From assembly GCF_003334765.1 (NCBI RefSeq), contig NZ_QOWT01000011.1: 64,000 nt of DNA; one strand, 5' to 3'. A program made the position numbers and the translations under genes. Below are positions 40,198-40,274 of the stretch, one piece after another; position 1 is the stretch's first letter; the number at the start of each line of letters is the position of its first letter. This DNA comes from Escherichia coli. GTDB lineage: Bacteria > Pseudomonadota > Gammaproteobacteria > Enterobacterales > Enterobacteriaceae. The notes beneath the pieces are model-generated. The model was given only the letters and a program-made list of their open reading frames with translations. It ran no database searches and had not been told where the DNA came from.

Positions 40198-40274
40198 CGC
40201 GGGGTGGAGCAGCCTGGTAGCTCGTCGGGCTCATAACCCGAAGGTCGTCGGTTCAAATCCGGCCCCCGCAACCA
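40198..40274 (+). tRNA. metY: Initiator tRNA-fMet (anticodon CAT), first gene of the nusA-infB operon
   Basis: CGCGGGGTGGAGCAGCCTGGTAGCTCGTCGGGCTCATAACCCGAAGGTCGTCGGTTCAAATCCGGCCCCCGCAACCA; three consecutive G-C pairs in the anticodon stem and C1xA72 mismatch typical of initiator tRNA. Confidence 0.9.

Follow-up and report, generated by a model that had tools for sequence, protein, structure and literature searches.

A near-K-12 Escherichia coli chromosome carries G46, the apparent ancestral base, in its metY initiator tRNA gene

Introduction

TrmB methylates G46 of tRNA, and the resulting m7G46 stacks inside the core of the molecule and forms a tertiary triple with the C13-G22 pair. For decades, tRNA-fMet2, which carries A46, was "the" cloned E. 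coli initiator tRNA. The difference in metY between K-12 and E. coli B is said to have been described by Mandal and RajBhandary in 1992. The G46/A46 polymorphism of metY has been known since 1992 and is textbook knowledge.

In K-12, metY carries A46 and encodes tRNA-fMet2, whereas all initiator tRNA genes of E. coli B encode tRNA-fMet1 (PMC3017606, PMC8887418, PMC5389676). PMC3017606 credits this difference to Mandal & RajBhandary (J Bacteriol 174:7827, 1992). The initiator pool of K-12 consists of tRNA-fMet1 and tRNA-fMet2 in a ratio of 75:25 (PMC8887418, PMC5389676). The m7G46 modification is known for E. coli tRNA-fMet1 (PMC3017606, PMC8887418), and A46 cannot be converted to m7G (PMC8887418). 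Because A46 is unmodifiable, native gels resolve two initiator species in K-12 and do not do so in B (PMC3017606, PMC8887418, PMC5389676). In terms of general structure, three consecutive G:C pairs in the anticodon stem are a conserved feature of initiator tRNAs (PMC5389676), and a structural paper on tRNA-fMet with the A1-U72 pair does not mention position 46 (PMC5393177).

Here, we analyzed the metY locus in a stretch of E. coli DNA of 64,000 nucleotides (contig NZ_QOWT01000011.1 of assembly GCF_003334765.1), hereafter called the window. We compared its position 46 with K-12, E. coli B, the complete genomes of the species, and species representatives of bacteria and archaea.

Results

The initiator tRNA gene and its position 46

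ARAGORN identified two tRNA genes in total in the window, one of them a tRNA-Met gene with the anticodon CAT at 40198-40274 on the plus strand. The Rfam tRNA model RF00005 matched 40198-40271 (61.4 bits, E = 7e-11). This 77-nt gene with an encoded CCA is metY, an initiator tRNA-fMet gene of the tRNA-fMet1 type. Read directly, its 5' part is CGCGGGG-TG-GAGC-AGCCTGGTA-GCTC-G-TCGGG-CTCATAA, and its 3' part continues from CTCATAA as CCCGA-AGGTC-GTCGG-TTCAAAT-CCGGC-CCCCGCA-ACCA. The gene showed the features expected of a bacterial initiator tRNA. The CAU anticodon (positions 34-36) is encoded by CAT at 40232-40234, as found by direct reading and by ARAGORN, which places it at linear position 35. 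The C1 x A72 mismatch is formed by C at 40198 and A at 40270, the latter being the last base of the 3' strand CCCCGCA. The three anticodon-stem G:C pairs 29:41, 30:40, and 31:39 are formed by GGG at 40227-40229 and CCC at 40237-40239, and A11:U24 is a further initiator hallmark that was read directly.

The D loop of this 77-nt gene has 9 nt, position 17a included, so that position 46 in standard numbering falls on the 47th nucleotide of the gene, which is base 40244 of the window. This base is G on the plus strand, lies in the variable loop AGGTC, and has its counterpart at MG1655 coordinate 3,318,243. A preliminary description of this DNA had read the variable loop as AGGTC with G46 at about 40244, and both the direct reading and the alignment gave the same result. 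With G at this position and a sequence identical to that of MG1655 metZ, metW, and metV, the gene is of the tRNA-fMet1 type. The G at 40244 is a real and correctly placed single-base state of a well-supported tRNA gene.

Surroundings of metY

The gene lies between argG and rimP at the metY locus, as indicated by synteny with MG1655, the metY-specific 3' flank, and the Rfam rimP leader. The 3' flank begins with CTTT, as opposed to the ATTA or ATCA that follows metZ, metW, and metV. The order of genes is secG-leuU-yhbX, then argG on the opposite strand, and then metY-rimP-nusA-infB-rbfA-truB-rpsO-pnp, which is the usual context for metY.

On the plus strand, a promoter-like site (TTGACA, 18 nt, TATAAT; 40076-40105) matches the sigma-70 consensus at 12 of 12 positions about 90 nt 5' of metY, and MG1655 has the same sequence. 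Its position, together with what is known of the metY-nusA operon, leads us to infer that this site is the promoter of the metY operon. A second, weaker promoter-like site on the same strand (TTTGCA, 18 nt, TAGAAT; 40153-40182), recognized by consensus match only (9 of 12), ends about 15 nt before the tRNA. Downstream on the plus strand, the trailer contains a polymorphism at 40289, 15 nt 3' of the metY end, where the window and K-12 have C and REL606 and strain 204 have T. The rimP leader element (Rfam RF01770, 102 bits) occupies 40363-40463(+) between metY and rimP, and a terminator scan found terminator-like hairpins inside it at 40396-40419 and 40444-40456, also on the plus strand. Next in the metY-rimP-nusA-infB operon is the rimP coding sequence, which extends over 40481-40933(+) from a TTG start. 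Its coordinates were transferred from the MG1655 annotation, in which the translation starts with LSTLEQK, and the window and MG1655 showed no SNPs across it.

Across the window, six Rfam elements scored above the gathering score. These are the ArcZ sRNA (7803-7910, minus strand), the greA leader (29555-29676, plus strand), the rimP leader described above, naRNA4, a REP-derived nucleoid-associated RNA (45162-45232, plus strand), the S15 leader (46745-46859, plus strand), and the SraG sRNA (47089-47260, minus strand). All six are expected for a K-12-like region.

Comparison with K-12 and E. coli B

In MG1655, metY is b3171 and occupies 3,318,213-3,318,289 on the minus strand. When metY and its flanks were aligned over 321 nt, the window and MG1655 differed at one base, namely 40244, where the window has G and MG1655 has A. 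In a six-way alignment, metY of the window had the same sequence as REL606 metY and as MG1655 metZ, metW, and metV, and A46 was present in MG1655 metY alone. The preliminary description had stated that K-12 metY encodes tRNA-fMet2 with A46 and that E. coli B carries the G46 (fMet1) sequence at this locus. The sequences and the literature agree with both statements: MG1655 has A46 in metY and G46 in metZ, metW, and metV, and REL606 metY is the same as the window gene. It had also held that a G in MG1655 metY, or a difference lying elsewhere, would speak against its claim. Neither was the case: the single A/G difference of MG1655 metY from the window gene and from REL606 metY lies at position 46, where MG1655 has A and the other two have G.

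Background of the source strain

The window corresponds, in reverse complement, to MG1655 3,294,487-3,358,486, from gltB to lpoA, and is collinear with it without indels. Over 64 kb, the two sequences showed 12 mismatches and no gaps (99.981% identity). The best match found was strain H3 (NZ_CP028732.1), a human commensal from human faeces in Mexico, which differed from the window by 3 mismatches in 64 kb, at 5369, 6169, and 8494. This wild isolate shares 9 of the 12 window alleles that differ from MG1655. Over 45 kb, REL606 showed 258 mismatches and 4 gaps (99.42%).

Six of the 12 sites could be polarized with REL606. It agrees with the window at two of them, metY 40244 and nusA 42110, and with MG1655 at the other four, so that the K-12 allele is derived at both 40244 and 42110. 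The latter is the first base of a Leu codon and is synonymous (CTG with C in the window, TTG with T in MG1655). In terms of K-12 characters, the window has G rather than A46 at metY and 11 differences from MG1655 outside metY, one of them the C at 42110. In terms of E. coli B characters, it has C rather than T at 40289 and is only 99.42% identical to REL606 over 45 kb, far from the near-identity that a relative of REL606 or BL21 would show. Judged from these comparisons, the source is a natural, phylogroup-A-like strain that lies very near K-12 and yet belongs to neither K-12 nor B. The non-K-12 background suggested by the preliminary description is thus confirmed independently of metY, by the 11 further differences from MG1655 in 64 kb and the alleles shared with H3.

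Distribution of the two alleles in E. coli

The population set consisted of 5,426 complete E. coli genomes. Queries of 321 nt and 22 kb gave identity bands too coarse to separate the alleles; a pair of 89-nt queries performed better and a 55-nt query performed best. The 55-nt query has A46 at its centre, so that no megablast 28-mer seed avoids the SNP and only A46 alleles can seed. With this query, an A46 initiator tRNA gene was found in exactly 365 of the 5,426 genomes, at one chromosomal place in each and never on a plasmid. The other 5,061 genomes (about 93%) have no A46 gene.

The 89-nt query spans position 46 and the metY-specific 3' flank. Perfect matches to its A allele were found in 365 genomes and to its G allele in 4,699 genomes, in line with the earlier statement that other lineages carry G46 at metY. 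The genomes with the perfect G allele come from a range of pathotypes and phylogroups, and O157:H7, Nissle 1917, strain 536, and ATCC 11775 are among them. About 360 non-K-12 genomes match the 89-nt G query imperfectly. Those examined (REL606 and strain 204, both aligned) keep G46 and have C->T at 40289, and in the match listing BL21(RP) showed the same single-mismatch identity of 98.9% as these two. Most of the imperfect matches are probably accounted for by the C/T difference at 40289.

We took 60 of the 365 A46 carriers evenly down the list and studied eight carriers in depth. All 60 were K-12 laboratory strains or had K-12-sized genomes, and they included MG1655, W3110-type strains, DH10B, MC4100, C600, HB101, J53, XL1-Blue, EMG2, and NBRC 3301. 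The early K-12 stocks EMG2 and NBRC 3301 already have A46. With 60 carriers sampled and eight studied in depth, a rare wild genome with A46 may still exist among the 365. A query centred on the nusA SNP found the K-12 allele, T at 42110, in 367 of the 5,426 genomes, against 365 for A46. This near-coincidence indicates that both SNPs mark essentially one K-12 clade. Two of the 367 have no A46 gene; these may be K-12 derivatives in which metY was altered or deleted.

The eight A46 genomes studied in depth carry natural-source labels: USML2, SY3626C1, THB42-F4, SF10, YZ22MPE54, EC06, TP6-1, and T177A. The labels of these RefSeq isolates name oil palm, chicken meat, dog, duck, pork, pig, and human gut. 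In the 40 kb around metY, all eight match K-12 at each of the six testable sites and have 0-5 private SNPs relative to MG1655. One of them bears an explicit transconjugant label. A dacB SNP at the window-equivalent position 28744 is common to USML2 and THB42-F4. On these alleles, the eight genomes are K-12 derivatives or transconjugants that bear the source metadata of the donor.

We also observed variation in the number of initiator tRNA genes. The initiator-tRNA query matched up to 8 places per genome (median 4) among the E. coli genomes, and four matching places were on plasmids, which indicates extra tRNA-fMet copies in some strains. In strain IR53017 (NZ_CP064103.1), the metY query gave no full-length match, and the initiator-tRNA query gave three places, the best of which is metZ beside mltA. 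In this strain, metY may be deleted or disrupted.

Position 46 outside E. coli

Among 100,044 bacterial and archaeal GTDB species representatives, with one genome per species, the A46 pattern had no exact match. As a positive control, the pattern was given R at position 46 and the metY-type flank and searched in the same representatives. It matched at least 120 loci from Enterobacterales, Vibrionales, and Pasteurellales. All 121 control matches listed have G, and 97 of these are in the orthologous position, with a rimP homolog at most 800 nt downstream. Since all listed outgroup matches have G and A46 is unmatched, G46 at metY is taken as ancestral and A46 as a G-to-A transition in the K-12 lineage. 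The comparison thus indicates that G46 is the ancestral state across the species and the order, and that A46 is the derived allele that serves as the marker.

Discussion

Our results leave very little doubt that the window contains the metY gene of a natural chromosome that is close to K-12 but is not K-12, and that this gene has the ancestral, wild-type G46, which is diagnostic only for "not K-12". The proximity to MG1655 (99.981% identity without indels) would also fit a K-12 derivative in which A46 of metY had been changed to G46 by gene conversion from metZ, metW, or metV or by engineering. Considering that an A46 gene is missing from 2 of the 367 genomes that carry the K-12 allele of nusA, K-12-haplotype genomes that lack A46 may exist. 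However, the window has C rather than the K-12 allele T at nusA 42110, 10 other sites also set it apart from MG1655, 9 of its 12 alleles are common to the wild isolate H3, and the K-12-haplotype genomes that were examined, all eight of them, have the K-12 allele at six of six testable sites. A converted metY in a K-12 derivative is therefore highly improbable and is effectively refuted by the 11 extra SNPs.

Two further readings are more improbable still. Considering that REL606 has the same tRNA gene as the window at metY and that E. coli B was singled out as a strain with tRNA-fMet1 only (PMC3017606), G46 might be read as a sign of an E. coli B (BL21/REL606) background. On the other hand, the 258 mismatches and 4 gaps in 45 kb to REL606 compare with 12 mismatches in 64 kb to MG1655. 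Also, REL606 has T at 40289, with BL21(RP) at the same single-mismatch identity, where the window has C; REL606 sides with MG1655 and not with the window at four of the six sites; and G46 is common to about 93% of E. coli. A B background has next to no probability and is refuted by the divergence from REL606. The G at 40244 could also be a sequencing or assembly error, for example if reads from metZ, metW, and metV had been assembled into metY, since three near-identical paralogs with G46 elsewhere in the genome are the usual setting for collapse artefacts. However, the exact 89-nt sequence, comprising the tRNA and the metY-specific 3' flank, is present in 4,699 independent complete genomes, and all 97 rimP-adjacent orthologs in other species, among the matches listed, have G. 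An artefact is thus as improbable as a B background and was rejected on these two observations.

We return to the wild-type metY of a natural near-K-12 strain. In this strain, metY is a single-copy initiator tRNA gene at the head of the metY-rimP-nusA-infB operon, and established knowledge leads us to expect that its transcript is processed to tRNA-fMet. TrmB would methylate G46 of the metY product to m7G46, and the modified base would form the triple with C13-G22 (40210 and 40220). In K-12, as the exception, a G-to-A transition in metY gives tRNA-fMet2 with an unmethylated A46, which makes up about 25% of the initiator pool. G46 is the wild-type allele and has no mechanism of its own. Presumably, tRNA-fMet1 is the only product of the four initiator tRNA genes in the source strain; metZ, metW, and metV lie outside the window. 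Because an A46 gene is absent from about 93% of E. coli genomes, and among the carriers listed none is a non-K-12 genome, a single initiator species is expected in the source, and we predict that the strain makes one initiator tRNA species.

From the genome counts and the species representatives, we consider it quite probable that tRNA-fMet2 with A46 is private to K-12 and has no natural counterpart, being absent from all other sequenced E. coli and from the species representatives. If so, even the closest wild relatives of K-12, with 12 SNPs in 64 kb, keep G46, and the observation of 1992 on K-12 and B would be widened to the whole species with the biology unchanged. The importance of this finding is very small, and it makes no open question testable. 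In terms of practical use, K-12 can be excluded quickly from this one base, at which K-12 derivatives (365 of 5,426 complete genomes) differ from essentially all other genomes. For constructs of tRNA-fMet2 derived from metY, A46 is an idiosyncrasy of K-12, and the wild-type locus encodes the form that is capable of carrying m7G46. The preliminary description had regarded G46 as a compact marker of strain lineage. This is right in that G46 excludes K-12, but G46 points to no lineage, B included, and the informative allele is A46.

In summary, metY of the window can be placed among three known initiator tRNA genes. Compared with tRNA-fMet1, which is encoded by metZ, metW, and metV in K-12 and by all four genes in E. 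coli B, it has the identical 77 nt including G46. From the metZ, metW, and metV genes of K-12 it differs in locus alone, being situated at metY, 5' of rimP-nusA-infB. With K-12 metY (b3171), which encodes tRNA-fMet2, it shares the locus, the flanks, the promoter-like sites, the trailer, and the rimP leader, and 320 of 321 nt are identical, but K-12 metY has A46 where the window has G46. With metY of E. coli B (REL606), it shares the G46 tRNA sequence at the same locus, but REL606 has T at 40289, where the window has C, and the surrounding 45 kb are only 99.42% identical.
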